Positions 42,119 to 58,931 of a DNA stretch of 64,000 nt are shown in pieces. Location: positions 694,157 through 758,156 of the forward strand of contig JBMNIF010000002.1 in NCBI GenBank assembly GCA_050950765.1, given 5' to 3'. The position numbers were made by a program, and so were the translations under genes. How positions within the stretch are numbered: position 1 is the stretch's first letter; every line of letters starts with the position of its first letter. The DNA comes from Bdellovibrionota bacterium (GTDB lineage Bacteria; Bdellovibrionota_C; UBA2361; JAAYZI01). The notes below the pieces were generated by a model. The model did not search any database. It was not told the origin of the DNA and worked only from the letters and a program-made list of their open reading frames with translations.

Positions 42119-42831
42119 TTGCTGTCGATTATTGGAATGTGTTGGTGGTGATAGTGGCAGGTTTTGCCACCTTAGCTATCTTTAGCTTGCTGATTAAAGA
42201 AAATCCCGTTTATAGGTTTGTTGAACACCTTTATATCGGTATCGCTGCGGGGTTGGGGATTATTTTAAGTATTAAAACTTTTTTGTGGCGGCAACTATTA
42301 CAGCCGATGCTGGGGCTTGATATTGTGCAGTATCCTGACGGAACTTTTTCAAAAGAATATAATTCGTTGTTGCTGTTATATATATTACCGATGCTCTTTG
42401 GGCTTCTGTATTACTTTATCTATTCAAAAAAATATTCATGGTTAGCTAAAATAGTAATCGGTTTTTCTCTCGGTATGAGTGGTGGATTGGCGTTCAAAGG
42501 CTTTTTTAATAAAATTATGCCGCAAATCAGTAGTAGTTTTAAGCCGCTCGTGGTGCTAAAAGATGGCGCTTTAGATTATTGGCAGAGTTTAGAAAACTGC
42601 ATCTTCGTTTTTACCCTTTTGATAGTGATGTATTATTTCTTTTTCTCTTTTAAACATCGTAAGTTGGGAAGGGGAGTTTCAATCTCAGGACGGTGGCTTT
42701 TAATGATCTGTTTTGGAGCTTTCTTCGGTTCTACGGTAATGGCACGTTTATCGTTGTTAGTTGAACGTTTGCAATTTTTATTAGGACCGTGGGCTAGTGT
42801 TTTAAAAGATGCAGTCGGGGTGTGGTTCTAA
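42115..42831 (+). CDS. Hypothetical polytopic membrane protein (operon gene 4 of 6)
   Basis: 238 aa; ATGA start/stop overlap with gene 3; about 6 predicted helices. Confidence 0.5.
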   Translation: MIAVDYWNVLVVIVAGFATLAIFSLLIKENPVYRFVEHLYIGIAAGLGIILSIKTFLWRQLLQPMLGLDIVQYPDGTFSKEYNSLLLLYILPMLFGLLYYFIYSKKYSWLAKIVIGFSLGMSGGLAFKGFFNKIMPQISSSFKPLVVLKDGALDYWQSLENCIFVFTLLIVMYYFFFSFKHRKLGRGVSISGRWLLMICFGAFFGSTVMARLSLLVERLQFLLGPWASVLKDAVGVWF

Positions 42832-42848
42832 AAAATTATTATTAAAAT

Positions 42849-44705
42849 ATGAAGACTAAAGCCGATGAAATAAAGGTAGTGTTAGTAACTGATTGTGGTT
42901 CTACCACTACAAAAGCACTTCTCTTTGAGGATATTGACGGAGTTTGGCAACAAACTTTTCGTGGTGAAGCTCCTACAACAGTAGAAGACCCCGTAGCGGA
43001 TGTAACAGTTGGTGCAAGAAATGCTTTTAAGGAGATCGAAGAATTAAGTGGTAGAAAAATTTTATCTGAGACTTCTTCTGATTCTCCTTTCCTTGAAAAT
43101 AACGGTTATGGTGATGGCATAGACCTCTATCTTTCGACTAGCTCTGCTGGTGGGGGCTTGCAAATGATAGTGGCAGGTGTCGTGCAATACATGACGACAG
43201 AATCTGCAGAGAGGGCGGCTTTAGGTGCAGGCGCTATCGTGATGGATACTATATCGGCAGATGACGGACGTGAAGATCATGAAAAGATAGAGAAGATTCG
43301 TCATTTACGTCCTGATATTGTGCTTCTAACAGGTGGAGTTGATTCAGGATCAAAGGTACACGTTATTGAAACTGCTGAAATATTGAGAGCGGCACAGCCG
43401 CGCCCCCGTTTTGGAAAAACTTTAAAACTTCCCGTTATTTTTGCAGGTAATAAAGATGCAGCAGTAGAGGTTAAAGAGATCTTAGCTCAGATTGCCGATG
43501 TTTCATGCGTAGAAAATGTGCGTCCGACTTTGGAAATGGAGAACTTAGCTCCTGCTCGCGCTGCTATTCATGAATATTTTTTATCGCATGTAATGAGTCA
43601 TTCTCCAGGCTATGACAAATTATTGCGCTGGACTCCCGTTCCGATTATGCCGACCCCTGCTGCAGTCGGAAATATGATTCAGAGCTACGCAGAAAGTGAA
43701 GACTTACAGGTGCTGTGCGTTGATATCGGTGGTGCTACAACTGATGTTTTTAGCGTTTTTAAAGATCTAAGTGGTGTGCCTGTTTTTAATCGTACCGTTT
43801 CTGCCAATTTAGGGATGAGTTATTCGATAGCAAATGTTTTGATCGAGGCTGGCGGAAAAAATATCGGGCGGTGGTTGTGTTCTGAGGTGAGTGAAACAGA
43901 GATTCACGATCGTCTAAGAAATAAGATGATTCGTCCGACCACTATTCCTCAAACGTTGGAGGATCTGTGGTTGGAGCAGGCAGTTTGTAGGGAAGCGTTA
44001 CGACTTTCTTTGCGACATCATAGGTCTCTAGCAGTGGGGTTAAGTGGTTTAAAAAAACAGAAGGGGATCGCAGATATCTTTTTGCAACATGAAAACCGTT
44101 ATGAATTAGTGAATATGATGAAGCTGGATCTGATAATAGGTTCAGGCGGAGTCTTAAGCCATGCTCCGAATCGGATGGAAGCTGCTCTGATGTTGCTGGA
44201 TGGCTTTAAGCCGGAAGGGCTGACGGAGATAGCGGTTGATTCCATCTTTATGATGCCGCATCTGGGAGTGTTTGCTACGTTACATCCGCAAGCAGCGCGA
44301 GAGATCTTTGTAAATAATTGTTTAGTGCGGATCTGTCATGCGGTTGTGCCGGTTTATTCAGGCAAGAGAGTAAAGGGTAGTTCTTTAGCACGAATTTTTT
44401 GGAACTCCGAGCCGGTAGCTGAAGTAAAAGTTGGAGAGGTGACGTGCCTTACTATGAATCAAGAAAAAGGGGTATTGCGGATTGAGCCTTTTGATAGGCG
44501 TGTTGATGTAGGAAGTGGTACGGGAAAAATTTTAGAAAGAGAGATTACACTTAATCCTCATGGATTACTTCTTGATGGTAGAAATCGTCCGTTAATAATG
44601 CCTGAAGATCCTGCGGAAGCGTTAAGATTTGAGCAAGATATCTACCGAAATCTCGGACTTCTTAAAGGGGATCTTCCTGAAGAATTAGTAACAGAGGAGG
44701 TTTGA
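42849..44705 (+). CDS. Actin-fold (ASKHA) ATPase-like protein, hydantoinase-A/GlmL-like (operon gene 5 of 6)
   Basis: 618 aa; phosphate-1-like ...VVLVTDCGSTTTKALLFED... at the N-terminus and phosphate-2-like ...LCVDIGGATTDVFSVF... near residue 290, the order and spacing expected for actin-fold ATPases. Confidence 0.6.
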   Translation: MKTKADEIKVVLVTDCGSTTTKALLFEDIDGVWQQTFRGEAPTTVEDPVADVTVGARNAFKEIEELSGRKILSETSSDSPFLENNGYGDGIDLYLSTSSAGGGLQMIVAGVVQYMTTESAERAALGAGAIVMDTISADDGREDHEKIEKIRHLRPDIVLLTGGVDSGSKVHVIETAEILRAAQPRPRFGKTLKLPVIFAGNKDAAVEVKEILAQIADVSCVENVRPTLEMENLAPARAAIHEYFLSHVMSHSPGYDKLLRWTPVPIMPTPAAVGNMIQSYAESEDLQVLCVDIGGATTDVFSVFKDLSGVPVFNRTVSANLGMSYSIANVLIEAGGKNIGRWLCSEVSETEIHDRLRNKMIRPTTIPQTLEDLWLEQAVCREALRLSLRHHRSLAVGLSGLKKQKGIADIFLQHENRYELVNMMKLDLIIGSGGVLSHAPNRMEAALMLLDGFKPEGLTEIAVDSIFMMPHLGVFATLHPQAAREIFVNNCLVRICHAVVPVYSGKRVKGSSLARIFWNSEPVAEVKVGEVTCLTMNQEKGVLRIEPFDRRVDVGSGTGKILEREITLNPHGLLLDGRNRPLIMPEDPAEALRFEQDIYRNLGLLKGDLPEELVTEEV

Positions 44706-44706
44706 A

Positions 44707-45831
44707 ATGACACGAGCGTTTGCTCCTGGTTTGCAGATAAAGAGAAAAACAGTTGTCAGACGGTTGCGTGAATTGCCTGTAACGGGCGAGGTCTTGGTTG
44801 AAGTAGGACAATATGTAGAAGCAGATCAAGTTGTGGCACGTGCTTCTTTAGAAGGTGAGCTTTTTATTTTTAGAATTGCTGAACAACTTGGCATTGAAAC
44901 GTTTGAAGTTGTTAATGGTCTTAAGGTTGCAGAAGGTGAAAAGATTAAGAAGGGACAACTTATCTGTGAACATCGAGGACTTTTCGGATTGTTTAACAGT
45001 AGATACTTTGCACCAGAAGATGGTGTTGTAGAGTTTATCTCTAAGCGGACTGGACATCTCGGTGTGCGTGCGCCTAGCGAGATGTTGGATATTGAGGCGT
45101 ATATTTCAGGGAGTGTGGTGGAGGTAGATGTAGGAAAATCTGTTTTGATAGAAACAGAAGCCTCCTTTATTCAAGGTATTTTCGGAGTTGGTGGAGAAAG
45201 ACGGGGTGTTCTGAAATGTTTGTCCGTTCCGTTAGATCATGAATTAACAGATCTTGATATTCCTGATGATTGCGCAGGAAGTGTGCTTGTTGGTGGCACC
45301 AAACCGCAGATCTCAGCCATTACTAAAGCAGCAGAACTTGGAGCTTGTGGTATCGTTACAGGCTCTATCGATGATCAAACTTTAAAAGCTTATTTAGGAT
45401 ACGATCTCGGCATTGCATTAACGGGAGATGAGCAGGTTCCTTTAACGTTAATAGTAACGGAAGGTTTTGGTTTTATTCCGTTAGCTAAGCGCATTATGGA
45501 GATGTGCCGAGAGTTAGAAGGTAGTGCTGTTTCAATAAACGGAGCAACACAGGTTCGGGCGGGTGCTATGCGACCGGAGATAATTATACCGCGTGCAGGT
45601 AATGTTTGTAATTTTGAAGATCTTGATAGTCAGGATCTGGAGAAGGGGCTTACAGAGGGGGCGCGGGTGCGTTTGTTGCGAGTACCGTATTTTGGAAAAC
45701 TTGCCACAGTTTTGGAGTTGCCGCAACAGAAGGAGAGGATTGAAACGGGTGCTTATGCCCGTGTTTTAAGGGTAAAGATCGACCACGCTAGTGTGGTGAC
45801 GATACCGCGAGCTAATGTAGAGTTGCTTTAG
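44707..45831 (+). CDS. Hypothetical beta-rich soluble protein (operon gene 6 of 6)
   Basis: 374 aa; AGGAGG RBS overlapping the stop of gene 5; Gly/Val-rich segments (...VVARASLEGELFIFRI..., ...GARVRLLRVPYFGKLATVLELP...) suggest barrel-type folds; no catalytic motif recognised. Confidence 0.55.
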   Translation: MTRAFAPGLQIKRKTVVRRLRELPVTGEVLVEVGQYVEADQVVARASLEGELFIFRIAEQLGIETFEVVNGLKVAEGEKIKKGQLICEHRGLFGLFNSRYFAPEDGVVEFISKRTGHLGVRAPSEMLDIEAYISGSVVEVDVGKSVLIETEASFIQGIFGVGGERRGVLKCLSVPLDHELTDLDIPDDCAGSVLVGGTKPQISAITKAAELGACGIVTGSIDDQTLKAYLGYDLGIALTGDEQVPLTLIVTEGFGFIPLAKRIMEMCRELEGSAVSINGATQVRAGAMRPEIIIPRAGNVCNFEDLDSQDLEKGLTEGARVRLLRVPYFGKLATVLELPQQKERIETGAYARVLRVKIDHASVVTIPRANVELL

Positions 45832-45971
45832 TTTTTTAGTGTGCACCTGCATATTTTTCTGAATGAATGGTGAATTGTGCAAGTAGTCGTTCTCAAGGCG
45901 ATCGACTATTAACAAATATCTTTTTTCATGGTAGAGATACTTTAAAATATTACTTATTTTATGAGGGAATA

Positions 45972-46997
45972 ATGAATTTAACGGACTCAAAATACAATCA
46001 GTTTAATTTAGTCAAAGAGATGTTGGAAGTTTGTGATATTATTGCAAACTTTAATTTTGAACAAACTGCACAAGTTGCGGCTGAAATAGCAAGTGTTGGT
46101 AAACTTATCTTGACAGGGGAGGGGTCGAGTCGCATTTTTCCTGCAAAAAGTGCGATTTATAAAGCATTAAAAAAAGCTCTTGATGTTACCATCATAACGG
46201 ACGGCAGCTATCAAGCTATGGAGTATGATTTAAGTAAGTACGTTGTCTTTGGTGCTAGTAATAGTGGTCAAACAAAAGAATTGATCACCCTCTTTTCTGC
46301 TTTAGTGGAGAAAGGGCACAACAGACGTTATGGTTTGACTTCACATCACGATTCAAAGTTGGAAACTGTTTCAAATAAGTGCTTTGTGCTCTCTTGCGGA
46401 TCTGAAAATGCGGTTGCTGCAACAAAGAGTGTCTTTGAACAAGCTCTTTTCTATCACAGTTTGCTTTTTAGTGGCTCTCATTGTGATGCAAAGTGTAATA
46501 ATATGCTTAAAAATAGAGAAGCAGCAGTGGCTGCTGCTAGAGCTGTTTTGACGATGCAGATAGATCCTGAAATTATTTCTGCTTTGGCTGAAGCTCCGAT
46601 GGTATATTTTGCAGGTAGGAATGATGGTGTTGCTGAAGAGCTCACCCTTAAAAATAATGAAATAACCCGTAAAAAGAGTGATTTTCTTGAAGGAACCTAT
46701 GCGCTGCACGGCGTAGAAGAGGTTATGCGTAAGGGAGAGGCTGTAATCTTTGTTAATCCGTTTCCGACAGAGTATCAGAAGATGAAAGAGATCTTTGAAG
46801 ATGCAGTGGGGGCTAAGGTTATTGTAATCTCTACTGAAGATACGCCATTTGCAACAATTAAAATTCCTCAAGTGGAAGGGTATCAACACTTCTTACAACT
46901 TTTAGCTGGATGGAATATCTTGGTTGATGTTGGTGTAGCAACAGATATCAACTTGGATAAACCACAACGTGCCAGAAAGGTTGGTAATGCTATGTAA
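45972..46997 (+). CDS. SIS-domain sugar-phosphate isomerase/deaminase (AgaS/GlmS-C-like)
   Basis: Two SIS-like repeats (...LILTGEGSSRIFPAKSA... and ...VVFGASNSGQTKELI...). Start set at the ATG with a GAGGGA RBS; track ORF begins at 45867. Confidence 0.75.
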   Translation: MNLTDSKYNQFNLVKEMLEVCDIIANFNFEQTAQVAAEIASVGKLILTGEGSSRIFPAKSAIYKALKKALDVTIITDGSYQAMEYDLSKYVVFGASNSGQTKELITLFSALVEKGHNRRYGLTSHHDSKLETVSNKCFVLSCGSENAVAATKSVFEQALFYHSLLFSGSHCDAKCNNMLKNREAAVAAARAVLTMQIDPEIISALAEAPMVYFAGRNDGVAEELTLKNNEITRKKSDFLEGTYALHGVEEVMRKGEAVIFVNPFPTEYQKMKEIFEDAVGAKVIVISTEDTPFATIKIPQVEGYQHFLQLLAGWNILVDVGVATDINLDKPQRARKVGNAM

Positions 46998-47030
46998 ATG
47001 TTGTGCAATTACCGTTTAGTGGTTGTTTTT

Positions 47031-47062
47031 AGCGGTGTTTTTTCAGCACCGCTCTTGTTTTA
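47031..47062 (+). terminator. Intrinsic terminator after the SIS-domain gene
   Basis: AGCGGTG-ttttttcag-CACCGCT (perfect 7-bp stem) followed by a T-rich tract (CTTGTTTTA), 34 bp past the stop codon. Confidence 0.55.
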
Positions 47063-47329
47063 AGTAAAAGTTATTAAAATTTGCTAGGGATCGTTTTTAG
47101 GTTTAAAATACCTCTGTTCTCGTAATAGCTTCATTTTAGTCCGTTCTTTTTTAGTAGAGGTGGTTGGTAGTCAAGAAAAAAAGTTTGTTTCTTCTTAAAA
47201 GTAAAGTTATCTCTTTTTAGTAGAGATTGAAAAACTTTTGAGAAGGAACAGCTGTGTAACGGTTGTTTCTTGTTTTAACGGTTTCTTTACAGAGAGAATA
47301 AAACATACAAAACGAAAGAGAGGCTTATT

Positions 47330-48145
47330 ATGGCGATCTATCGTAAGAGATCTTCCGACGGTACTGTTCTTCGAACGTCGCAGATCTCAAAATTTTTCCC
47401 TAACTGGCAAGGGGAAGAAGAGGCTTGGCTTTTCATTGCTCCACATGACGATGATATCGTTCTTGGAGCAGGAAAAACTTTGTTGGCGGCTCTTGAAGAA
47501 GGAGTCGATGTTCACTGCGCTATTACAACTGATGGCGCAATGGGGTATTGCTCTCTGGAGGTGCGGGATACCATTTCCGAAGTTCGTGAAAAAGAGTGCT
47601 TTAACTCTTTTAGGGAGCTGGGGGTGGAAGATAAAAATATCTATTTCCTGCACTTCCCAGATTGCAACTTGGTTCCGTTTCAAGGACGTTTCCGTGACGT
47701 AACAGGACACCCTTCCGAGATTGCGGGAGCAGGAGGTTTGCAGAACGCTTATACGCATCTTCTGCGAAAAGTGCGACCGACCCGTGTTTTTATCCCGACG
47801 AGTACGGATTTACACCCTGATCATAGGATCGTAAACAGTGAGGTGCAGATCTCTCTCTTCCATGCAGAAGGTGGTATCTGGCCGGAGCTTGGAGCTGCTA
47901 CAAACGTTCCGTCTCTTTATGAATACGCTACCTATTGCGACTTTCCAGAGGCTCCGCAATTGTGTATCGAGATTCCCGCCGAGATTTTGGAGAAGAAGTG
48001 GCGTGCTTTACGGTGTTATGAGAGTCAAACTCAGATTGAAAGTCTGATTGAATCTCAGAAGCAAAGTGGCTCTCTTGAATATATTCGAGAGGTGCCTTTT
48101 AACCTCTATTCGCCGCAACAATACGCTCCCCTGTTTAAGTCATAA
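47330..48145 (+). CDS. PIG-L/LmbE-family N-acetylglucosaminyl deacetylase
   Basis: ...LFIAPHDDDIVLGAG... (metal-binding HxDD motif) and ...STDLHPDHRIV... (HPDH) are characteristic of LmbE-like deacetylases. Confidence 0.8.
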   Translation: MAIYRKRSSDGTVLRTSQISKFFPNWQGEEEAWLFIAPHDDDIVLGAGKTLLAALEEGVDVHCAITTDGAMGYCSLEVRDTISEVREKECFNSFRELGVEDKNIYFLHFPDCNLVPFQGRFRDVTGHPSEIAGAGGLQNAYTHLLRKVRPTRVFIPTSTDLHPDHRIVNSEVQISLFHAEGGIWPELGAATNVPSLYEYATYCDFPEAPQLCIEIPAEILEKKWRALRCYESQTQIESLIESQKQSGSLEYIREVPFNLYSPQQYAPLFKS

Positions 48146-48348
48146 CGTTACAGCTATGGCAAATACTGTTTTTTTAAAAGTAGGGGCTTATAGTTTTTTA
48201 ATTATAAGCCCCTGCTTAGACACGGCTTTTCCTTTTTCCATTTCGCGTTGCCTAAACTTCCTTTATTGAGGTTCATTTCCCTGTTGTGATTTTTTCCTGT
48301 TTCAGTAAGATCTGTATGTATCAAAAAATCGGGAAATAAGGATTAAAT

Positions 48349-49149
48349 ATGAATAAGGTAAATACTGTCACAGAGCATAAAAGAGGCTTTTTAATTGATA
48401 TGGATGGGGTAATTTATCGTGGATCGACGATGATTCCAGGTGCAGATGTCTTTATTAATACCTTAAAGGAAAAAAATATCCCCTTTCTCTTTTTAACTAA
48501 TAACAGTCGTTCGACCAGAAGAGATCTAGCAAATCGCTTAAATGAGTTGGGTATTAAGGTTTCAGAGCAACATATCTTTACTAGTGCTATGGCCACAGCG
48601 CAGTTTCTTGCAAAACAGAAGCCGAACGGAACAGCATATTTAATCGGAGAAGGTGGTTTAATTTTAGCTCTACATGAAAACGGTTACAGCATCGTTGATA
48701 GAAATCCGGATTACGTGGTGGTAGGCGAGGGCAGAACTTTAACTTTAGAGATAGTAGAGAAGGCGATAGATTTTATTATCGACGGATCAAAGTTAATTGC
48801 TACCAATATGGATCCAGCACCACAGTCAAAGGGTTGGATGAAGCCTGGTGTCGGAGCTATTACGGCGATGCTTGAGGAAGCAACGCATAAGAAGGCGTTT
48901 TGTGTCGGAAAGCCAAGCCCGATTATGTTACGAGCGGCAAGAAAGAGGTTAGGGTTGCAGACTGCTGAAACAGTAATGATTGGTGACACCATGTCTACTG
49001 ATATTTTAGGTGGTGTCCAGATGGGGTGCACAACGGTGCTGGTCTTAAGTGGTATTACTTCACGTGCTGATATGGCGAACTATGCTTATAGACCTGATAT
49101 CGTCGTTGACTCCATCGCCGATCCGGAAATTATGGCTATGGTTGAGTAG
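48349..49149 (+). CDS. HAD-superfamily subfamily IIA hydrolase (NagD-like sugar phosphatase)
   Basis: HAD motif I ...FLIDMDGVIYRG..., motif II ...FLTNNS..., C-terminal ...MIGDTMSTDILGG.... Confidence 0.85.
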   Translation: MNKVNTVTEHKRGFLIDMDGVIYRGSTMIPGADVFINTLKEKNIPFLFLTNNSRSTRRDLANRLNELGIKVSEQHIFTSAMATAQFLAKQKPNGTAYLIGEGGLILALHENGYSIVDRNPDYVVVGEGRTLTLEIVEKAIDFIIDGSKLIATNMDPAPQSKGWMKPGVGAITAMLEEATHKKAFCVGKPSPIMLRAARKRLGLQTAETVMIGDTMSTDILGGVQMGCTTVLVLSGITSRADMANYAYRPDIVVDSIADPEIMAMVE

Positions 49150-49159
49150 TAATCTTGAT

Positions 49160-51244
49160 TCAGCGGAGCATCTTTGCTGCGAGAGTTCTAAAGTGAGCGA
49201 CTGTTTCCTCTGTATCTTCAAATTCAGACTTTACCTTTGCTATTAAGGAAAAAGCATGAGCTAGATTTTCGCCATTACCATTAAAAGGATTTTTTTCCGT
49301 GAGCCCTGTTTTAACAAAATCAGCTTGCTTATTTTCATCGTTAGGGACTCCAAGTAGAAGAGCGATATTAAAACCGCAACAATATGCTTCGTTAAGAAGC
49401 TCCTCTTTTTGGGTAGTATCTTCTTTGTCAATCTCTTGTGTAGCTTTTGTATATAATAACTCTCCAAGGTTATATAAACATCTTCTATAATCAGTGGTTA
49501 CTTTTGTATGTTTAACCATACCAGGAAGGCGCTCTGGAAATTGGTTATCTATGGTTCGTGTGGTGTCTGTTCCGAAAGTGTTGTGTAACACCGTGCGTAA
49601 AATTCCAATAGCAAGATTGTGTTGTCTTCTAGCTTCTTCTTCAGGATTTTCAAGAGGCAGTTTTTTCCCTCCTTTGCTGTTTCTGTATGTATCCAAAAGT
49701 TCCGGAGTTGTCTTTAAACAGGTAGTAGTTAGATCTAAGATCGTTTTCAGATCATTTTTATTGCAGTAATAAGCACATTCTAAATATTTTTGAGCCAGCA
49801 ATTTATCCTTGGATACTAAGCCTATCCAACGAAAAGCTTTCGAGACGAATGCTCCAAGATTTTTCGGTACCTTTTGGGCGAATTCCTCAGGTGTGCTTGT
49901 TATAAGTTGTTTGTAACTCTTAAAGCCTACACTTTCTAGGATTTTCCAAGCAGAAGCATTGGCTTGTTTAAAATATTCCCTTTTTTTTGGATCGGTCTCC
50001 TCGGCATTACGATACGCCTCTCCGAAACCGATCAGGTTTTTAAATTCATTTTGCAACTCCTCTTCCAGTTTTTGCATTCTAAATATTTTGATCCGGTTTG
50101 CAAGGTCGTTAAAGAAAACGGCAGTTTCTTCTGTGTCTTTAAATACAGACCTTATTTCTGCTATTAAGGAAAGAGCGTAAGCAAGATGCTTGCTTTTACC
50201 ATTAAAAGGGTTTTCTTTTCCTAGTTCTTCCGTAATGAAATCATTTAGTTTGCTAGAGTCGTTAGGAGCTCCAAGTAGAAGAGCAGTATTAACACCGCAG
50301 CAATATGCTTCATCAAGGAGAGACCTTCTTATTTCCAAGTAGTCTTGTTGAATTTCTTTTTGTGCTTTGTTAAGTAATAATTTTCCAAGATTGTTTAAAC
50401 ATTGTCTACAATACGCGTTTATTTTCATATCACCAAATATGTCTGGATCTATCTTTTCTATATCTGAAAATTGTTTATCTATGGTTTGTGTGGTGTCTAT
50501 TTTGAAGGTATCGTTCAATGTTGTGCGTAAAATGTTAATAGCAAGTCTATGTTGCCTCCTGATTTCCTCTCCAATATCTCTAACATTTTTAAAACGTGGG
50601 TCTGTTTTGCCACGTTTTTTATATTCATCAAATTGATTTTTTGTTGTATTTGCATAGAGATCAGTTAGATTTAAGATCGTTTTTAAGTCATTTTTATTAC
50701 AATAATAAGCGCATTCTAAAAATCTTGCAGCGTCCAGATAATAGTGTTGCCCCTGTGAGTTCTTGTAGGATAAGCCTATCCGATAGAAAGCTTCTGCAGC
50801 GAACTTCTTAAAATCATCCGGTATCTTTCTAGCGATTTTTTGAGGTCTGCTTTTTTTAATCTGTTGATAGTTTTTTATATCTAAAATCCTCAAAATTTTC
50901 CAAGCACAATCACTAGCTTGTTTAAAGCTTTTCTCCTTCATGAAACTTGCCATGCGGGCAGATTCCTTTTTTAACTTCTTCAGTATCTGCTCTCTTGATT
51001 TTTTAGTAAGTTTTTCTTGTGACTTTTGTTGTTTTAGATCGTCTAGAATTCCTCGTAGTGGAGCAGCAGGAGCAGAAGATCCTTGTGATGTAGCAGAGCC
51101 AGAAGTAAAAAATGGTGTGTCTAAGTTTGAATCTCTTTTTGCGCTTGGATCTCTGTTTGTTTTTGGGGCAGTGGAAGAGTCGTTTTGCGGTGTTGCTCCT
51201 TTTGCGCTCGGATTTGTACCTTTTTCTAAGCTTTCGTACGTCAT
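49160..51244 (-). CDS. Hypothetical protein with two tandem ~290-aa Cys-containing repeats and a low-complexity N-terminus
   Basis: 694 aa. Residues ~95-390 and ~400-694 are clearly homologous (LECAYYCNKNDLKTIL, RRQH(R/N)LAI(N/G)ILRT, LDEAYCCGVNTALLLGAPND / LNEAYCCGFNIALLLGVPND, EKNPFNG, FKDTEETA / FEDTEETV). The first ~90 residues are Ser/Thr/Pro/Lys-rich with no signal peptide. The stop lies 10 bp from the convergent NagD-like stop. Confidence 0.6.
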   Translation of the reverse strand: MTYESLEKGTNPSAKGATPQNDSSTAPKTNRDPSAKRDSNLDTPFFTSGSATSQGSSAPAAPLRGILDDLKQQKSQEKLTKKSREQILKKLKKESARMASFMKEKSFKQASDCAWKILRILDIKNYQQIKKSRPQKIARKIPDDFKKFAAEAFYRIGLSYKNSQGQHYYLDAARFLECAYYCNKNDLKTILNLTDLYANTTKNQFDEYKKRGKTDPRFKNVRDIGEEIRRQHRLAINILRTTLNDTFKIDTTQTIDKQFSDIEKIDPDIFGDMKINAYCRQCLNNLGKLLLNKAQKEIQQDYLEIRRSLLDEAYCCGVNTALLLGAPNDSSKLNDFITEELGKENPFNGKSKHLAYALSLIAEIRSVFKDTEETAVFFNDLANRIKIFRMQKLEEELQNEFKNLIGFGEAYRNAEETDPKKREYFKQANASAWKILESVGFKSYKQLITSTPEEFAQKVPKNLGAFVSKAFRWIGLVSKDKLLAQKYLECAYYCNKNDLKTILDLTTTCLKTTPELLDTYRNSKGGKKLPLENPEEEARRQHNLAIGILRTVLHNTFGTDTTRTIDNQFPERLPGMVKHTKVTTDYRRCLYNLGELLYTKATQEIDKEDTTQKEELLNEAYCCGFNIALLLGVPNDENKQADFVKTGLTEKNPFNGNGENLAHAFSLIAKVKSEFEDTEETVAHFRTLAAKMLR

Positions 51245-51518
51245 GGCGCATAATTATATCTCTGCTTTAATCCTTAATCAAAACTTGTAAACATCCCTAC
51301 CCTCTCCCATATAGATAGTTTCTTTAAAGAACCAATATACCTTAAAACTTCAAAAAACTGGGGGGCAGGAAAACTTCTACAAGATATCTCCGTAATGTTT
51401 TAGCGTGGTTAGATTGCCGACCGTATTTTATGGTATAAGGGCGAAGCTTTCTTGTGTGTAATTTATGTGTAGAGACGCAAGTCTAGTTATTTTTAGAGAT
51501 TAGTGGTGTGTAAAAGGT

Positions 51519-52352
51519 ATGGAAATCGATTATGATCTGTTAGATTCTGGGAACGGTTTAAAACTGGAGAGGTTCTCTGAAAAAATTTTAATCCGCCCGA
51601 GCTCCTTAGCTATCTGGGATAAAAGTGACGAAAAGCTTTGGAAAAAAGCCGACGCTGTTTATGATCTAGATAAAGGGTGGTGCTACCTCTCTCCGCGTTT
51701 TGATGAATGGTCTTTAAAGGTTGGTTCTGATTTACAACTAATTTTACGTTTGCAAGATAACGGACAGGTCGGACTTTTTCCTGAACATCATCTATATCTT
51801 GATCAGATGATTGACGCTATCTCAGATTGTAAAAAAGATAAGGTGGAGGTCTTAAATCTGTTCGCCTATACAGGTATGGCATCAATACTGTGTGCTAAGG
51901 CTGGTGCTTTCGTTACACACTTAGACCTCTCCAGAAAAGCTTTAAAGTGGGCTAGGCAGAATGTTGATAAAAACGGTTTAAAGGGGGTTCGTTTTATTGA
52001 AGATGATGCAGTTACTTTTGTGCAACGTGAAATAAAACGGGGCAAAAAATACGATCTTATTATTGTAGATCCCCCCAACTTCAGCCGCACCGATAAACGT
52101 AAAAGTTGGAATATCGAAAATATCTTGCCGCAACTGCTGGGAGATTTAGCTACTTTATCGAATGAGCGTGTTCATATCTTTGCTACAAGTCATTATTTGA
52201 CCTACGGTGCAAAAGAGATGATGTCAAATATCTTGAGACAGAAGTTACAACCAAATGAAATCTTTACCCAAGATTTAATCTTAAAAGAGCTTCATTCGGA
52301 AAATACTCTTCCTGCTGGAACGTTAGTCTATTGCAAACGAATCCCCGCTTAA
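51519..52352 (+). CDS. Class I SAM-dependent methyltransferase (RlmI/RlmK-like rRNA methyltransferase catalytic domain)
   Basis: ...LNLFAYTGMASILCAKAGA... (AdoMet-binding motif I) and ...DLIIVDPPNFSRT... (DPPxF motif) as in the RlmI family. Confidence 0.65.
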   Translation: MEIDYDLLDSGNGLKLERFSEKILIRPSSLAIWDKSDEKLWKKADAVYDLDKGWCYLSPRFDEWSLKVGSDLQLILRLQDNGQVGLFPEHHLYLDQMIDAISDCKKDKVEVLNLFAYTGMASILCAKAGAFVTHLDLSRKALKWARQNVDKNGLKGVRFIEDDAVTFVQREIKRGKKYDLIIVDPPNFSRTDKRKSWNIENILPQLLGDLATLSNERVHIFATSHYLTYGAKEMMSNILRQKLQPNEIFTQDLILKELHSENTLPAGTLVYCKRIPA

Positions 52353-52367
52353 AGGTTCGACTAGTTA

Positions 52368-52997
52368 TTATTCTACGCTAACGGCGATAATCCGTTCCCA
52401 AAGGTGTTGAACAGGTGTTTTTTCTCCGCTAGCTATAAGGTCGGAAGTCGTCAAGTTATAACACTCTGCAATCGCTTTCGGACGGGCGTGCTTCTCTTTT
52501 TGATTAAGCTTATCCATCTTCGTCAGAACGACTAAAAGATGAACATTAGCTGCAAAGGCGATATCTCGAATAGCTAACTCATCATCTTCTGGATCTCGTC
52601 GACAATCGTTAAGTAAACAGATCGTAGTAAGATGCGGGCGATTTCGGATGTACTCTACTGTTAATTGACTTAGCTTCTCACGTTGAGTCTTGGCAAACTT
52701 TGAATAACCGAATCCTGGTAAGTCAGCTAAAATAAGTTGCAACTCTTTCTCTTCAGCGGAGTCCTGTTCAAGTGCTAGAAGGAGGCTGAAAAGGTTAATC
52801 TCGGTGGTACGTCCTGGTGTCTGACTGGTGCGCGCTAATTTGTGCCGCCCTGTTAATCGATTCACGAGAGTAGATTTTCCGACATTAGACCTGCCGATAA
52901 TGGCGACCTCTGGAATGCTACATTGCGGTAAGGCTGAAAAAGATTGTGCCCCTCCTAAAAAGTCAATATTTTTTATCTTGATAAACATTTTTTCCAC
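52368..52997 (-). CDS. engB: Ribosome biogenesis GTPase YihA/EngB
   Basis: G1 GRSNVGKSTLVN, G3 ...LADLPGFGYS..., G4 ...VLTKMDKL...; about 200 aa. Confidence 0.85.
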   Translation of the reverse strand: MEKMFIKIKNIDFLGGAQSFSALPQCSIPEVAIIGRSNVGKSTLVNRLTGRHKLARTSQTPGRTTEINLFSLLLALEQDSAEEKELQLILADLPGFGYSKFAKTQREKLSQLTVEYIRNRPHLTTICLLNDCRRDPEDDELAIRDIAFAANVHLLVVLTKMDKLNQKEKHARPKAIAECYNLTTSDLIASGEKTPVQHLWERIIAVSVE

Positions 52998-53092
52998 TAT
53001 ATTAAAACAGTCGTGCCGTATTTGCAGTGCCTAAGTTTTTCATTGCGTTAAAATAGCTTATCCGTATGTGTAATATCTAAGCTTCTACTGTG

Positions 53093-54616
53093 TTAAAATT
53101 GTTGTACAGTACTTGCAATACCTAAGGCACTTTTTACGGCGCTAATCTTATCGATAACGTGCGCCTTATACCACGTTGGATCCCACCACTCTCTTGGATT
53201 TGCCGGAATATTATTAACCCAAAGCTCAACCGTAAAGCCGTTTGTTAAAGCAAAACCGGAATCTCCGATAGTGCCGATAGTTTGCCCCGCTTGTACTGTA
53301 TCTCCTAGCTTAACGACATAGTTTCTTAAGTTGCTATAAAGTGAGAAGAGACCTAAGCCGTGATCAATTACCACAACATTTCCGTAAGTCCCAATATTCC
53401 CCGTAAAATGCACAATTCCGGAGTTAATGGTACGAACTTCACCGTTTTGAGCATCCGATAAAAAGTTAAACCCTAATTGTTTAACGGTGCCGATGTTGGA
53501 TCCGTTATAGATATAATTAAGGGTGTGACCGAACTCTGTCCTTGCTGGACCTAACGGTTTAACAAAAGCACCTTGCCAAAGCTTTTCAGATCGTCCACCT
53601 GTCCTTAGTTGAGAGAGTATTTCTTCCCTATCGAGGCGGCGTAATTCCTTATTAACCAATTCAAAGTTCTGAATTTTCTGTGTAGTGGAGTTAGAAGGAT
53701 CGTTCCAAGTGTCTTCATCACGTAGAGTAGGAGAGAGGGGTTCAAGTTTGTTTAAACCTTTTTTGATTAAATCTGGAATGGTTTTTTGTAAAAACTGCTC
53801 TGGAACTTGGTTTCTTAAAGAGGCGTATCTGATGGGAGCGATTTTATTGTAGAAGTTCATGCTCTTAACGTTACCGACACGGTCTTCAGCAAAAAGTGTT
53901 GGAGTTTGTTTACTGATCTCAGTAGTCAGATCTATGGCGTAGATACAGACATAAAGGTTGGGAGATTGTTCAAAATCTAAATCTAAAAAACTTGCATTAA
54001 ACCCATTAAAGATACGATCCCCTACCTTTACGCCGGAGAGTGCGAGGTTCTCATCTGTCGCTGTATAGAAGATTAGTTGAGAGCCGCCGTGCACGGCGTT
54101 GTGTTGTGTTGAAACAACGGCGAGTTTAGGTTTCTTATAATCAACGATTAGGTCGTAGCTCTGCTCCGCCGAATTAAACCAGAGACTCTTATCAAAAGCT
54201 TTGATTACTAATTGAACACTTCCTTCATTAAGCTCACTTTCTTGAGCATTGAAAGTAACTTCAATATTTTTACTATGAAGTTTTTTAGAGCCTACACTTA
54301 AGGTGCCGTTAAAAATGTCACGTTTTGAACCTTTTTGTATTAAAGAGATCTTCGCTTCAAAGAGACCAGCGCCCTCATCCGAAATATTCCACCGAAAAGT
54401 AACGGGTCTTGCGCCGATTCCGTGAGGTATCTCCCCTATGACTTTAATAGTCGGAGGTGTTACCTCTAGGAAGGTAGTGTAGAGCCATTTCCATCCAAAA
54501 AAAGCAGGGACGCTGAGTAGCCCGAAGCAGATTAAAACTATAATTAGGATGCGTAGAGGACGACGCCTACTTTTTTGAGGACGCTCGTTTGTTTGTGAAT
54601 TATCAACGCTAGTCAT
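53093..54616 (-). CDS. LytM/M23-domain protein, probably non-catalytic
   Basis: N-terminal anchor and a C-terminal M23-like core (...GNVVVIDHGLGLFSLYSNL...). The canonical HxxxD is HTLNY and the HxH position is ...TNGFTVE..., so the zinc ligands appear to be absent. Confidence 0.7.
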   Translation of the reverse strand: MTSVDNSQTNERPQKSRRRPLRILIIVLICFGLLSVPAFFGWKWLYTTFLEVTPPTIKVIGEIPHGIGARPVTFRWNISDEGAGLFEAKISLIQKGSKRDIFNGTLSVGSKKLHSKNIEVTFNAQESELNEGSVQLVIKAFDKSLWFNSAEQSYDLIVDYKKPKLAVVSTQHNAVHGGSQLIFYTATDENLALSGVKVGDRIFNGFNASFLDLDFEQSPNLYVCIYAIDLTTEISKQTPTLFAEDRVGNVKSMNFYNKIAPIRYASLRNQVPEQFLQKTIPDLIKKGLNKLEPLSPTLRDEDTWNDPSNSTTQKIQNFELVNKELRRLDREEILSQLRTGGRSEKLWQGAFVKPLGPARTEFGHTLNYIYNGSNIGTVKQLGFNFLSDAQNGEVRTINSGIVHFTGNIGTYGNVVVIDHGLGLFSLYSNLRNYVVKLGDTVQAGQTIGTIGDSGFALTNGFTVELWVNNIPANPREWWDPTWYKAHVIDKISAVKSALGIASTVQQF

Positions 54617-54633
54617 GGCAATTTTGCAAAAAA

Positions 54634-55635
54634 TTAAAATTCAAAAGCTTCTAGATTATCTCCGAAACGCTCTAAGATAAAAACCTTTAACTTCTCCTTA
54701 ATACGATTTTCAATTTGACGTACCCTCTCACGACTTAAAGATAGCTTCTCTGAGAGATCCTGCAAAGTCGCTTTCTCTTCAGAGAGGAGTCGTTCCTGAT
54801 AAATGATGGCTTCATTGGGGTTTAAAGTGTCAAGAAAATCTTTTAAAGCGAGAGAGATCTGTGCCTTTAACTGTACGTTAGAGAGGATCTCTTCAGCTGT
54901 CTCTGTTTCTGAAGGAAAGAGAGAGAGTAACGGAGTGTCTGGATCATTTTGTAAGGGAGCATCAACGCTGAGATCTGGTGTGCTCAAACGTTGCTCCATC
55001 TCTATTACTTCACTCTCTTTGACGTTAAGTTTTTCCGCTAACAACTTCGGCTCTGGGGAAAAACCCTCACGCTCTAGCCTCTCTTTCTCTTTTTTTAAAT
55101 TAAAAAAAAGTCTACGTTGCGCTTGTGTAGTGCCGATCTTCACCATACGCCAGTTGGCGATAATATAACGAACAAGATAAGCTCTGATCCACCAAACTGC
55201 ATACGATGGAAGTCTTACGCCGCGATACGGGTCAAAATTTTTAACAGCCTCCATTAGACCGATATTCCCTTCCTGAATCAGATCTAAGATGCTTCGTGCG
55301 GCTTTTTCATAATCACGTGTAATTTTAACAACAAGCCATAAATTACTCGTGATAAGTTTATAGACAGCATCTAAGTCATTATGCTCTTTATATCTGACAG
55401 CAAGCTCATGTTCCTCTTCTCTACTTAGTGGCGGATAACGACGTATTTCACGTAGGTACGCTCGTAAAGGATCGTACGGAACTACCTCCTGAAGACGTGG
55501 GGGTGGCAGCAGCTCCTTTTTTGTACAATCCAAGAGTCCTGCAACTTTAGCAGTTTTGTCAGGTAGGAGCTCTATTGTAGCAGAATCTTCCTTAAGAGGT
55601 GGCTTATCTGTGGTTTGCGTCAAGTCTTTTGTCAT
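54634..55635 (-). CDS. rpoH: RNA polymerase sigma-32 (heat-shock sigma factor), with N-terminal extension
   Basis: Region 2 ...LIQEGNIGLMEAVKNFDPYRGVRLPSYAVWWIRA... and the RpoH box ...WRMVKIGTTQAQRRLFFNLKK..., plus region 4 ...LSLSRERVRQIENRIKEKLK.... Confidence 0.8.
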   Translation of the reverse strand: MTKDLTQTTDKPPLKEDSATIELLPDKTAKVAGLLDCTKKELLPPPRLQEVVPYDPLRAYLREIRRYPPLSREEEHELAVRYKEHNDLDAVYKLITSNLWLVVKITRDYEKAARSILDLIQEGNIGLMEAVKNFDPYRGVRLPSYAVWWIRAYLVRYIIANWRMVKIGTTQAQRRLFFNLKKEKERLEREGFSPEPKLLAEKLNVKESEVIEMEQRLSTPDLSVDAPLQNDPDTPLLSLFPSETETAEEILSNVQLKAQISLALKDFLDTLNPNEAIIYQERLLSEEKATLQDLSEKLSLSRERVRQIENRIKEKLKVFILERFGDNLEAFEF

Positions 55636-55981
55636 TGTTCGGCGAATCCTAACAGAAAGAGAGGAAATGCTACAAGCGGTTACGCAAATAAAACAAACCT
55701 TGTTTTATTTTTTTACTATACAAAATCTTCACCCCTTCGGAAAGGCGTTAAGTTGGAAAGCGCATCTGTCGATCTCTTAAGACAGTTCTTGTAGTGCCCT
55801 GAGTTTAAAGACTCAATTAGGGGATTTCTGTGTAAGAACCGAGATAGAAGGCAAAACGGAACTTTAGGCTACGTTAAAGCATAGTTGTGCAGAGTGTCCC
55901 TGTTTTAAGTCCGTTTTTTAAGTATCTACTTTAAAGCGGGAGCAATCTGCGGCTGTTCAGTTTTTGTTAAGGAGCGTGAAT

Positions 55982-57676
55982 ATGCAATCACGAGTTGGTG
56001 ATCTGCTGGTTCGTGCGGGGTTGTTGACCGAAGATCAGTTAAATAAAGCCAAAGAGTCACAAGCAGCTACGGGTGGGTTATTGGCTAGCGCCATCATTGC
56101 GCTTGGTGCGATCACTGAACAAGATTTCGCAGATCTTCTGAGTGAACATTATGCTGTGCCTATCGTTACCCTTGACGATTATCAGATTGAAGATAGTGCC
56201 GTAAACCTGATTCCGCAAAACCTTGCTACAAAGTACGGTTTAATGCCAGTTTTAAAGGAACAGAGCACTTTAACCATAGCCATGATTGATCCGTCAAATG
56301 TTGTGGCATTAAACGATATAAAATTTATTACAGGCTTAGATGTTCGTGCAGTTATTGCACTTGAAAGTGATATCAAAGCAAAACAGGAAAAATATTACGA
56401 AGACCATATTTCATACAGCAGTATCATTGATGATATTGAAAGTGAAGACTTTGAAGTCGTTGCTAACAATGAAGAGCTTGATTTAAGAGAGCTTGAAAAG
56501 GCAACGGAGGATGCGCCTGTTGTAAAACTTGTTAACGCTATCTTGATGGATGCCATTAAGAAAGGTGCTTCCGATATTCATCTGGAGCCTTATGAAAAGG
56601 TATTTAGAGTTAGATTCCGTATCGATGGTGTGTTGTATGAAATTATGAAACCTCCGATGAAGTTGAAGAATGCTATTACTTCACGCCTAAAAATTATGGC
56701 TGATCTCGACATTGCAGAACGGAGGTTACCACAAGATGGACGTATTAAATTAAAGATCGGTTCTAATAAAGAGATGGATTTCCGTGTAAACGTTCTACCT
56801 ACTTTATTTGGGGAGAAGGTAGTTTTACGTTTACTTGATAAGTCTAATTTGCAACTTGATATGACGAAGTTGGGCTTCTTTCCAGAACAGCTGGAGCATT
56901 TTAAAGATGCCATCAGTAAACCACACGGCATGGTGCTTGTAACGGGACCAACGGGTTCAGGTAAGACTACAACACTTTATTCGGCGCTAGCGGATCTAAA
57001 TAAAGTAGGCACCAATATTAGTACAGCAGAAGATCCTGTTGAATTTAATCTAACAGGTATTAATCAAGCTCAGATGCACGATGAGATCGGATTTAATTTT
57101 GCTTCAGCACTACGTGCATTTTTGCGACAAGATCCTGATGTAGTTATGGTTGGTGAGATTAGAGATTATGAAACTGCTGAAATAGGCATTAAAGCTTCCT
57201 TAACGGGTCACTTGGTGCTCTCAACGTTACATACTAATGACGCACCATCGACTATTAGCCGTCTGTTAAATATGGGTGTGGAACCGTTTTTGGTAGCATC
57301 TTCCGTTAATCTAATTGTGGCGCAACGTTTAGCGCGACGTGTTTGTAGTCAGTGTGCACAGGAAGTGCACTTAAATCCTGAATTGTTGGTAAATATCGGT
57401 ATCCCTGCGGAAGAGGCTAGGCATATTAAGGTAATGCAAGGGAGTGGTTGTGAAGCGTGTTCAGGGACGGGGTATAAAGGGCGTGTTGCTTTATACGAAG
57501 TGATGCCGATGATGGAGAGTATTAGAGAGTTAATCCTTAATGGTGCTTCTACAACAGAGCTAAAAAGGGAGTGTATCAAACAAGGTATGCTGACTTTAAG
57601 AGCTTCCGCTTTATTAAGATTAAAAGAAGGTATGACAAGTTTGGAGGAGGTTCTCCGTGTTACAGCAGCTGATTAA
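55982..57676 (+). CDS. pilB: Type IV pilus assembly ATPase PilB (GspE family)
   Basis: N-terminal GspE-N/MshEN-like domain (...VGDLLVRAGLLTEDQLNKAKESQ...), Walker A GPTGSGKTTT, and a tetracysteine motif (CSQC...CEAC). Start set at the ATG with AGGAG RBS; the track ORF begins 18 nt upstream at a non-ATG codon. Confidence 0.9.
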   Translation: MQSRVGDLLVRAGLLTEDQLNKAKESQAATGGLLASAIIALGAITEQDFADLLSEHYAVPIVTLDDYQIEDSAVNLIPQNLATKYGLMPVLKEQSTLTIAMIDPSNVVALNDIKFITGLDVRAVIALESDIKAKQEKYYEDHISYSSIIDDIESEDFEVVANNEELDLRELEKATEDAPVVKLVNAILMDAIKKGASDIHLEPYEKVFRVRFRIDGVLYEIMKPPMKLKNAITSRLKIMADLDIAERRLPQDGRIKLKIGSNKEMDFRVNVLPTLFGEKVVLRLLDKSNLQLDMTKLGFFPEQLEHFKDAISKPHGMVLVTGPTGSGKTTTLYSALADLNKVGTNISTAEDPVEFNLTGINQAQMHDEIGFNFASALRAFLRQDPDVVMVGEIRDYETAEIGIKASLTGHLVLSTLHTNDAPSTISRLLNMGVEPFLVASSVNLIVAQRLARRVCSQCAQEVHLNPELLVNIGIPAEEARHIKVMQGSGCEACSGTGYKGRVALYEVMPMMESIRELILNGASTTELKRECIKQGMLTLRASALLRLKEGMTSLEEVLRVTAAD

Positions 57677-57713: not shown

Positions 57714-58931
57714 ATGGCACTTTATGTTTGGGAGGGAAAAAACAGCGCTGGTGTTACTGTTAAAGGTGAGATTGAAGCGAAAACACCGCAAGCTGTTTTT
57801 AATGCTTTGCGTGCGCAGCAGATTACCCCAATAGCTAGTAAGATTAAGGAAAAGGGGAAGGGGCTTGATATGGAGATCAAGCTTCCTGGCATGGGACCGA
57901 AGGTGCGCGATAAAGATGTCGTTGTTTTTACAAGACAGTTTGCAACCATGATTGATGCGGGACTTCCTCTGGTGCAGGCTTTGCACATATTAGGTGCAAA
58001 TCATGAGAATAAAGCTTTTAAAAAAGTTTTACTGGGGGTTAAAGATAGTGTAGAAGCTGGCGGAACTTTAGCTGAAGGACTGAGTAAATATCCGAAGGCG
58101 TTTGATGAGCTTTTTGTAAATATGGTTAAAGCTGGTGAAAGTGGTGGTATCTTGGATATCATCCTTGAAAGACTCTCAGTGCAACTTGAAAAAAGTATGA
58201 AGTTAAAGCGTGAAGTTAAGACAGCTATGATCTATCCTTCTGTTATTGTTGCCACTGCTATTATCGTAACTGTTGTCTTGTTAGTCTTCGTTATTCCGAC
58301 CTTTGCTGAGATGTTTGAAGACTTCGGATCTGCCCTACCGTTACCAACACGAATAGTGATGATGATCTCTGATTTCTTTATAAATAACGCTCTTATTATC
58401 TTCCCTGGAGCGATAGCGCTTTTTTTCCTATTTATGTTTTTTGCAAAAACGCCACGTGGAAAGGAAGTGCTTCATCCTGTCGCCTTAAAGTCACCTGTTT
58501 TTGGTGAGTTGATTAGAAAAGTTTCTGTGGCGCGTTTTAGTAGAACGTTAAGTACTATGCTCAGTTCAGGTGTGCCGATTTTAGATGCACTTAGTATCTG
58601 TGCCAAAACTGCAGGGAATATCGTGGTGGAGCGTGATATCAAGACAGCTCGTGTTGCGATCTCTGAAGGAAAAACAATGGGAGAGCCGCTTTCAAAATCT
58701 GCTGTTTTTCCACCGATGGTTACTTCAATGATAATGGTTGGAGAGTCGACGGGTGCTGTCGATGCTATGTTAGCAAAGATTGCAGACTTTTATGAAGATG
58801 AAGTTGATACAGCTGTTACAGGCTTAAAACAGTTGATAGAGCCTATAATTATCCTCGTCTTAGGTGTGATTATCGGTGGTTTGGTTGTGGCGATGTATCT
58901 ACCGATCTTCAAACTGGGTAGCGTTGTGTAA
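57714..58931 (+). CDS. pilC: Type IV pilus inner-membrane platform protein PilC (GspF family)
   Basis: 405 aa with two GspF-type repeats and three hydrophobic segments; directly follows pilB. Confidence 0.9.
   Translation: MALYVWEGKNSAGVTVKGEIEAKTPQAVFNALRAQQITPIASKIKEKGKGLDMEIKLPGMGPKVRDKDVVVFTRQFATMIDAGLPLVQALHILGANHENKAFKKVLLGVKDSVEAGGTLAEGLSKYPKAFDELFVNMVKAGESGGILDIILERLSVQLEKSMKLKREVKTAMIYPSVIVATAIIVTVVLLVFVIPTFAEMFEDFGSALPLPTRIVMMISDFFINNALIIFPGAIALFFLFMFFAKTPRGKEVLHPVALKSPVFGELIRKVSVARFSRTLSTMLSSGVPILDALSICAKTAGNIVVERDIKTARVAISEGKTMGEPLSKSAVFPPMVTSMIMVGESTGAVDAMLAKIADFYEDEVDTAVTGLKQLIEPIIILVLGVIIGGLVVAMYLPIFKLGSVV

Follow-up and report, generated by a model that had tools for sequence, protein, structure and literature searches.

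Superhelices of the tetratricopeptide repeat (TPR) type are not catalysts; their groove accommodates extended peptides or other proteins as ligands. In Legionella, the Sel1/TPR-repeat proteins LpnE and EnhC are virulence factors that carry Sec signal peptides as well as Sel1-type repeats. AimR is a further member of the RRNPP peptide receptors, the group that includes Rap, NprR, and PlcR. In Bdellovibrio bacteriovorus, the TPR protein Bd2492 (NP_969302.1; 353 amino acids) is a polar hub that binds MglA, RomR, and CdgA and is co-transcribed with tamAB-like genes (PMC3983030). The present analysis concerns a 694-codon gene in a 64,000-nucleotide stretch of DNA (hereafter, the window; positions 694,157 to 758,156 of contig JBMNIF010000002.1, GenBank assembly GCA_050950765.1) from a Bdellovibrionota bacterium. 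Its product is read here, with a probability of roughly 0.6, as a soluble, signal-less, bivalent TPR adaptor with one constant half and one diversifying half.

Tail, helix, and two TPR-like modules

The open reading frame (ORF) lies where the initial annotation of the window had placed it, and the protein falls into the parts listed below. Here and throughout, dN/dS and pN/pS are ratios of nonsynonymous to synonymous change, and L001 is a contig from a second strain.

49160..51244, minus strand: complete ORF, 694 amino acids, ATG start; stop codon at 49160-49162
51059..51244, minus strand: disordered Ser/Thr/Ala/Pro-rich tail, residues 1-62; hypervariable among strains, including two in-frame indels (24 nt and 27 nt)
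50954..51058, minus strand: Lys/Glu/Gln-rich segment, residues 63-97; helix assigned from sequence only
50075..50953, minus strand: module A, residues 98-390, first TPR-like copy of about 290 amino acids; fast-evolving, pN/pS 0.64-3.5 between alleles
50687..50800, minus strand: TPR motif of module A, residues 149-186 (AAEAFYRIGLSY...LECAYYCNKND); aligns with the Pfam TPR_2 match of the distant relative P0008
50321..50656, minus strand: most variable core of module A, residues 197-308; dN/dS 6.5 across residues 196-310, window versus L001
50618-50656, minus strand: hypervariable patch, residues 197-209; 10 of 13 residues differ
49985..50074, minus strand: inter-module helix and linker, residues 391-420; in-frame 21-nt indel between strains
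49163..49984, minus strand: module B, residues 421-694, second copy; conserved between strains, pN/pS 0.43-0.61
49751-49852, minus strand: equivalent of the TPR motif in module B, residues 465-498

The internal duplication claimed at the outset is clearly present in the protein. When residues 91-395 are compared with residues 396-694 by BLASTP, residues ~103-385 align with residues ~421-692 over 285 amino acids, with 47% identity and 64% positives (E 3e-84). The duplication can also be followed in the DNA, as had been claimed, since the two units share 65.9% identity across 827 bp (E 1.5e-56). All of the motifs that had been quoted as shared are found in both units: LECAYYCNKNDLKTIL, RRQHxLAIxILRT, EAYCCGxNxALLLGxPND, NPFNG, and DTEETA. 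The duplication is old and has been constrained over the long term, with a dS of ~0.86 and a dN/dS of 0.44 between the two modules.

The description of the N-terminus as disordered and signal-less also holds. Residues of the S/T/P/A/G/N/Q group make up 71% of the tail, and no hydrophobic stretch is found anywhere in the protein (maximum Kyte-Doolittle 19-residue mean of 0.19 over the first 60 windows and of 1.31 overall). By this crude measure of hydropathy, neither a Sec signal nor a transmembrane segment is indicated, because there is no hydrophobic segment to serve as one.

The nature of the two modules becomes apparent only through distant relatives. By itself, the whole protein has no match in Pfam, NCBIfam, PADLOC, or the PDB sequences, and a single sub-threshold match in PHROGs (E 0.0088) is to a family of unknown function. 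An exhaustive HMMER search, in which a profile of the repeat unit was run against 1.84e9 cluster representatives, returned seven proteins, namely a fragment of the protein itself and the relatives P0003 to P0008. Two of these exceed the Pfam gathering threshold for TPR_2: P0008 with 33.1 bits (residues 110-142) and P0004 with 31.9 bits (residues 293-324). The two matches fall at opposite ends of the module, the one in P0008 aligning with the segment AAEAFYRIGLSY...LECAYYCNKND and the one in P0004 with LAYALSLIAE...DTEETAVFF. A profile of the nine-sequence family alignment of the module (alignment A6) matches TPR proteins among the PDB sequences with E-values from 9e-27 to 1e-8, over profile positions 61-110 and 184-299. 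The matches include consensus TPR designs (9e-27) and the TPR domain of OGT (1.5e-16), as well as SPINDLY and Cdc27. In the reciprocal search, the hidden Markov model (HMM) built from the same alignment recovers both modules of the protein. Thus, the statement that no family matches is true of the protein alone and ceases to be true once the distant relatives are used. The check proposed with it, a profile search with a single repeat unit, divides in the same way, with no family found for the single protein and family-level TPR matches found via the relatives.

The predicted structure points in the same direction. Residues 396-694 (module B with the preceding residues 396-420) were modeled with a predicted local distance difference test (pLDDT) score of 86.8 from an alignment that includes the distant relatives; an earlier AlphaFold2 run on four window-type units alone reached a pLDDT of 50.7 and was discarded. 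The predicted fold consists of tandem antiparallel helix pairs that would form a superhelix, which is the arrangement by which a TPR fold is recognized. By the sequences of its relatives and its predicted fold, the module is a very diverged, all-helical superhelix of the TPR type. The initial annotation had named a match to a known cytoplasmic enzyme family as a result that would refute its reading; the matches do not amount to this, since the TPR fold serves for binding and is not enzymatic.

The same alignments bear on the repeated Cys/His motifs (CxxxC, CC, CxxC, and RRQH) behind the initial suggestion of a metal-binding function. A metal-binding or redox protein built on these motifs would be expected to keep them, and five Cys and one His are indeed common to both modules and to all three alleles described below. 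No distant family member keeps them, however: there is no conserved Cys or His column in alignment A3 or in alignment A6, and the only invariant columns of the family are L, G, E, L, E, and R, with an E...R motif that corresponds to EExxRRQH. For example, LECAYYC is aligned in the relatives to LEDAVLF, LERSIYL, LEHAVGL, LELAARL, and LERAVAL, and AYCCG is aligned to AAECA, SIQHS, SENAA, AEANA, and TRDAT. The CxxC motif (C279/C282) is confined to module A, and the Cys motifs sit within predicted TPR helices, aligned with the TPR_2 matches of P0008 and P0004. Searches of Pfam, NCBIfam, and the PDB sequences gave no match to a metal-binding family. As read from the alignments, the Cys residues are lineage-specific substitutions inside TPR helices. 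A metal site is thus very improbable, because the shared Cys/His columns are not kept across the wider family.

Strain divergence of the front and rear halves

A second strain provides the contrast on which the proposed division between the two halves is based. The contig L001 (Logan SRR24902083) is collinear with the window over positions 42210-56512 at 98.2% DNA identity. Nine neighboring proteins are 98.5-100% identical between the window and L001, with a pooled pN/pS of 0.12, and the protein under study is 91.7% identical, with a dN/dS of 1.70. Its dS (0.023) is at the same level as that of its neighbors (0.0285), while its dN is about 12 times theirs. The excess is unevenly spread along the protein, with a dN/dS of 1.5 in the tail, 3.6 in module A, 6.5 in residues 196-310, and 0.45 in module B. 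In residues 63-97, the strains differ by many K/E/R/Q substitutions, several of which swap charge. Taken over residues 1-395, the nonsynonymous rate is 0.062 per site, or 2.2 times the pooled synonymous rate of the neighbors (Fisher P 1.5e-5), and the difference persists when the hypervariable patch at residues 197-209 is left out (P 1.3e-3).

A third allele comes from the European Nucleotide Archive (ENA) contigs L009 and L010, which represent one strain, since the two assemblies are 100% identical across 1620 bp. With this allele, pN/pS is 1.3-2.9 in the tail, 0.64-1.12 in module A, and 0.43-0.61 in module B, and for the whole gene, it ranges from 0.7 to 1.7 among the alleles. Four indels separate the alleles (24, 27, 21, and 9 nt), and all four are in frame. 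The 694-codon ORF is intact in two strains. Overall, the gene has been kept as a coding sequence, with constraint on the rear half and, in the front half, change at a rate above neutral expectation.

Two processes that could mimic rapid change of the front half were considered. Gene conversion of module A by module B was rejected, as the patch is identical to module B at 22 of 39 nt in both alleles and singleton alleles match module B no more often than majority alleles do. The recombinational import of a divergent allele was rejected as well because the dS of the gene equals that of its neighbors.

Two further sites lie within the gene and just upstream of it.

49754..49762, minus strand: frameshift site AAT AAA AAT (N495-K496-N497) in module B; five consecutive A are reduced to four in L009/L010
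51253..51281, minus strand: putative sigma-70-like promoter TTGATT-17-TATAAT; 10 of 12 consensus matches, identified by consensus match only

In the third allele, the frameshift (L009:1412-1434; L010:527-549) lies inside the CNKND motif and splits the ORF into parts of at least 475 and of 178 amino acids. It could be a real null allele or an assembly error shared by both contigs, as the two assemblies may share reads. The pattern as a whole might be attributed to a dispensable gene that is drifting toward a pseudogene, in which case the high dN, the indels, and the frameshift would all be signs of lost constraint. An overall pN/pS close to 1, the frameshifted allele, and the small and patchy family are in keeping with such drift. 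Yet in two strains the reading frame of this AT-rich gene stays open over 694 codons, several public contigs encode exactly this protein, and every indel is a multiple of three. The purifying selection on module B, together with the low dN/dS between the paralogous modules over a long divergence, also speaks against it, as does a front-half nonsynonymous rate that exceeds, and does not merely equal, the neutral rate. The putative promoter is conserved as well: the second strain has the same two hexamers, within a 274-bp intergenic stretch upstream of the gene that diverges by only ~2%. Relaxed constraint alone is the less likely explanation, given that the indels are in frame, module B is conserved, and the nonsynonymous rate lies above neutral; decay into a pseudogene is considered improbable.

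A small module family and its genomic settings

The protein is identical to NCBI entry MGI6524698.1 ("hypothetical protein ACOX2O_05315") of a Bdellovibrionota metagenome-assembled genome (MAG), and 7 public contigs carry exactly this sequence. The two genes next to it are annotated in that MAG as well, and samples that contain the gene include SRR24902083, JGI 3300062814, and ERZ28614917/ERZ15185696. A word-index search of 5.8e9 proteins gave a single match, the ortholog P0001, which is 89-92% identical. Searches of the same index with alignments A3 and A5 did not enlarge the family and returned only the ortholog or query members. Scans of genome contigs and of metagenome contigs with the protein returned nothing, and the scan of genome contigs with alignment A5 returned two genomes that were already known. 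In the exhaustive search, the repeat-unit profile found P0003 with an E-value of 3.5e-22 (positions 6-283), followed by P0004 (7e-8), P0005 (4.5e-7), P0006 (5e-5), P0007 (5.8e-4), and P0008 (8.8e-4). The lineage-specific character that had been noted is thereby confirmed, with 6 distant relatives among 1.84e9 representatives.

The relatives also show how unusual the two-module form is. P0003 (504 amino acids), P0005 (512 amino acids), P0007, and P0008 (all within the range of 500-540 amino acids) have one module followed by a C-terminal extension of ~200 amino acids, P0004 (337 amino acids) is the module only, and P0006 is short (203 amino acids). The possibility that the extension derives from a third, degenerate module copy was rejected (hhalign probability 0.1%). 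The protein in the window has two modules and lacks the extension typical of its single-module relatives, and it is therefore an architectural variant of its module family. In this lineage, a second module occupies the place of the unrelated ~200-residue extension, and the protein is the only known two-module variant of a small, unannotated module family.

Where the hosts of the relatives are named, they are MAGs of Bdellovibrionota or Bdellovibrionales, including a complete 2.28-Mb genome (CP129486.1) from an anammox reactor, as well as a Thermoguttaceae MAG from an anaerobic membrane bioreactor and one MAG labeled Altiarchaeota. The family of ~290-residue modules is almost restricted to uncultured Bdellovibrionota of reactor-type habitats. 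The Thermoguttaceae member is P0003, the closest of the distant relatives (L002:7684-9515 in JAXGMN010000083.1). Its gene lies directly 3' of csrA on the same strand with a gap of 128 bp, and a second csrA is found 4 kb further on, amid sulfatase and fucosidase genes; this link to csrA is not present in the Bdellovibrionota loci. P0004 (MBU0761730.1), the member with the most canonical C-terminal TPR, is labeled "Candidatus Altiarchaeota archaeon" and is encoded on a 6.4-kb contig, which could be a mis-binned bacterial contig or reflect horizontal transfer.

In the window, the gene stands alone on the minus strand between two plus-strand genes, as the initial annotation had stated and as the ORF list and the family matches of the neighbors confirm.

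48349-49149, plus strand: HAD-IIA/NagD-like hydrolase gene
51519-52352, plus strand: class I S-adenosylmethionine (SAM) methyltransferase gene

It is monocistronic, and its stop codon is separated from that of the hydrolase gene by only 10 bp (49150-49159). It is also mildly AT-rich, as had been claimed, with a GC content of 36.6% and a GC content at third codon positions (GC3) of 29.2%, compared to a GC content of 40.3% for the window and a GC3 of ~35% for most genes. No obvious Shine-Dalgarno sequence precedes the ATG. The end of the putative -10 hexamer is 9 nt from the ATG, which suggests a leaderless mRNA or one with a very short leader. The solitary position is a recurrent one: at three Bdellovibrionota loci (L004:7848-9476, L005:10001-11539, and the window), the family member is a lone gene, divergent from its upstream neighbor and convergent with its downstream neighbor, in neighborhoods that are otherwise unrelated. 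The family member behaves like a single-gene unit that is placed independently of its surroundings.

Such a lone, diversifying gene could encode an exported or translocated effector, one of the options raised initially. The disordered N-terminus would then be a non-Sec signal, the TPR modules would bind proteins of the prey or host, and diversification would be driven by those targets. A Sec signal is lacking, yet the N-terminus is disordered and S/T/P-rich, and a tail rich in S/T/P/A/G/N/Q residues (40-66%) precedes the module in most relatives. The front half changes above the neutral rate, a feature not confined to effectors; the gene stands alone, is slightly AT-rich, and has its own putative promoter. 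The phylum Bdellovibrionota is, moreover, largely predatory. On the other hand, the window, which spans 64 kb out of the 1.25 Mb or more of its contig, has no genes of a type I, III, IV, or VI secretion system and only type IV pilus genes; the protein has no toxin or enzymatic domain by searches of Pfam, NCBIfam, and PADLOC; and one strain carries a frameshifted allele. Signal-less TPR scaffolds are also usually cytoplasmic, as Bd2492 of Bdellovibrio is (PMC3983030). Given a tail that most relatives share, fast evolution, and a gene that stands alone, the effector reading is regarded as possible but doubtful. The other option raised initially, a lineage-specific structural protein, comes closer to the evidence; the translocated effector or toxin lies further from it.

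A more specific and less probable version holds that the module family as a whole is an unrecognized family of leaderless, diversifying TPR effectors of uncultured Bdellovibrionota. The tail would act as a non-classical export signal, module A would recognize a polymorphic protein of the prey or host, and module B would dock onto the delivery or anchoring machinery. Should this unlikely version be true, the allelic series among strains, including the null allele, would mark variation in prey range.

A further reading is an intracellular TPR sensor in anti-phage defense or in signaling. The protein might be an RRNPP-like receptor or the sensor arm of a defense system, and fast evolution, which is typical of TPR sensors of this kind, fits such a role. 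Generic TPR proteins nevertheless outscore those of the RRNPP type, PADLOC gives no match, Pfam reveals no helix-turn-helix (HTH), phosphatase, nucleoside triphosphatase, or protease domain, and no conserved partner gene adjoins the relatives. There is also no room for a downstream propeptide gene because of the short gap between the stop codon and the convergent gene. A sensor of this kind is thus a far-fetched reading.

The rest of the window encodes two copies of pilT, pilB (55964-57676), pilC (57714-58931), Mfd, a class A penicillin-binding protein, a DDE transposase, and a sigma-54 activator whose membrane domain resembles that of PilS. Searches of the 64 kb for tRNA and Rfam features found none. 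Some of its genes have features of their own.

58977-60965, plus strand: 662-amino-acid protein with a PilS-like domain of six transmembrane segments, a PAS domain, a sigma-54 AAA+ activator domain, and a Fis-type HTH, but no receiver domain
7307-8980, minus strand: 557-amino-acid ORF with a DDE_Tnp_1 transposase domain and the lowest GC content in the window (32.5%, GC3 27.6%); probably an insertion sequence
13696-15918, minus strand: uncharacterized ORF of 740 amino acids, with no Pfam domain at E<=1e-5
45867-46997, plus strand: SIS-domain gene, 376 amino acids from the first ATG and 341 amino acids on L001 (9495-10520)
42849-45831, plus strand: PF13941 "MutL" protein (618 amino acids) and, after a gap of 1 nt, a 374-amino-acid protein with no confident domain

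The 662-amino-acid protein adjoins pilB and pilC and looks like a one-component, membrane-anchored fusion of PilS and PilR. The true start of the SIS-domain gene probably lies downstream of the first ATG because the 341 residues shared with L001 are 100% identical. The "MutL" protein and the 374-amino-acid protein are >99% conserved between the strains.

The adaptor reading and known TPR systems

What first appeared to be a novel Cys-rich orphan is thus an extremely diverged TPR scaffold, and the metal-site idea can be dropped. In the adaptor reading, the protein would begin with a disordered tail of ~62 residues, continue with a charged helix, and end in two TPR superhelices of ~290 residues, each of which may provide a groove for binding. 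A partner that does not vary would be bound by the conserved C-terminal module. The N-terminal module and the tail would contact a partner that itself varies, in an interaction that is antagonistic or marked by rapid co-evolution. Given the predatory phylum, the variable partner could be a component of the prey, the host, or a phage. We infer the binding function, the division of labor between the modules, and the nature of the partners from the fold and from the evolutionary asymmetry of the two halves.

A number of points weigh against the adaptor reading. The protein alone matches no Pfam TPR family at E<=1, and a profile built from window sequences only (A2) has no PDB match. The TPR assignment therefore depends on relatives with 18-24% identity and on the model built with them. 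Searched by Foldseek, the model gives only weak, generic helical-repeat matches in the PDB (best E 9e-3, TM-score 0.39), and the same is true of the viral library. The selection analysis uses only three alleles and simple Nei-Gojobori counting, and the pairwise pN/pS of module A is spread so widely (0.64 to 3.5) that relaxed constraint could account for some of the signal. The frameshifted third allele suggests that the gene can be lost in some strains. Neither the window nor the loci of the relatives, whose contexts are unrelated, have an operon, a partner gene, or a conserved neighborhood that would give a clue to function.

The signature of diversifying selection between strains is the part most worth following, and public metagenomes allow it to be scrutinized at the level of populations. 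The contrast is a clean one, with near-identical flanks and promoter, a fast front half, and a fixed rear half, and it marks a candidate conflict with prey, host, or phage. Beyond this gene, the small, unannotated family of TPR modules offers a way into the biology of predatory lineages not yet cultivable.

Among known systems, Bd2492 invites comparison. Like Bd2492, the protein is a signal-less TPR protein of the same phylum that is annotated as "hypothetical", and the window also holds type IV pilus genes. Unlike Bd2492, it is encoded by a monocistronic gene with HAD-IIA and SAM methyltransferase neighbors on the opposite strand, and not in an operon with tamA/tamB-like genes. The exhaustive search of the 1.84e9 representatives returned no named B. 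bacteriovorus protein, and the likeness to Bd2492 would be one of functional analogy only. The differences from the RRNPP receptors (Rap, NprR, and PlcR) are greater: the protein comes from a different phylum, has no HTH or phosphatase domain and no adjacent propeptide gene, and scores lower against these receptors than against generic TPR proteins. With LpnE and EnhC, which are used at the host interface, it shares helical-repeat binding, as proposed here, and a lineage-specific character, but it lacks their Sec signal peptide and their Sel1-type repeats. The canonical TPR scaffolds (Pfam clan CL0020; for example, sNASP, LGN/Pins, MamA, YrrB, kinesin light chain, and OGT) are its structural neighbors. 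Compared to these, it is too diverged to be recognized by any TPR model and has no close solved structure by Foldseek. Instead of a run of 34-residue repeats, it has a module of ~290 residues with a non-canonical, variable center (residues ~197-308), and it is this whole module that has been duplicated in tandem.

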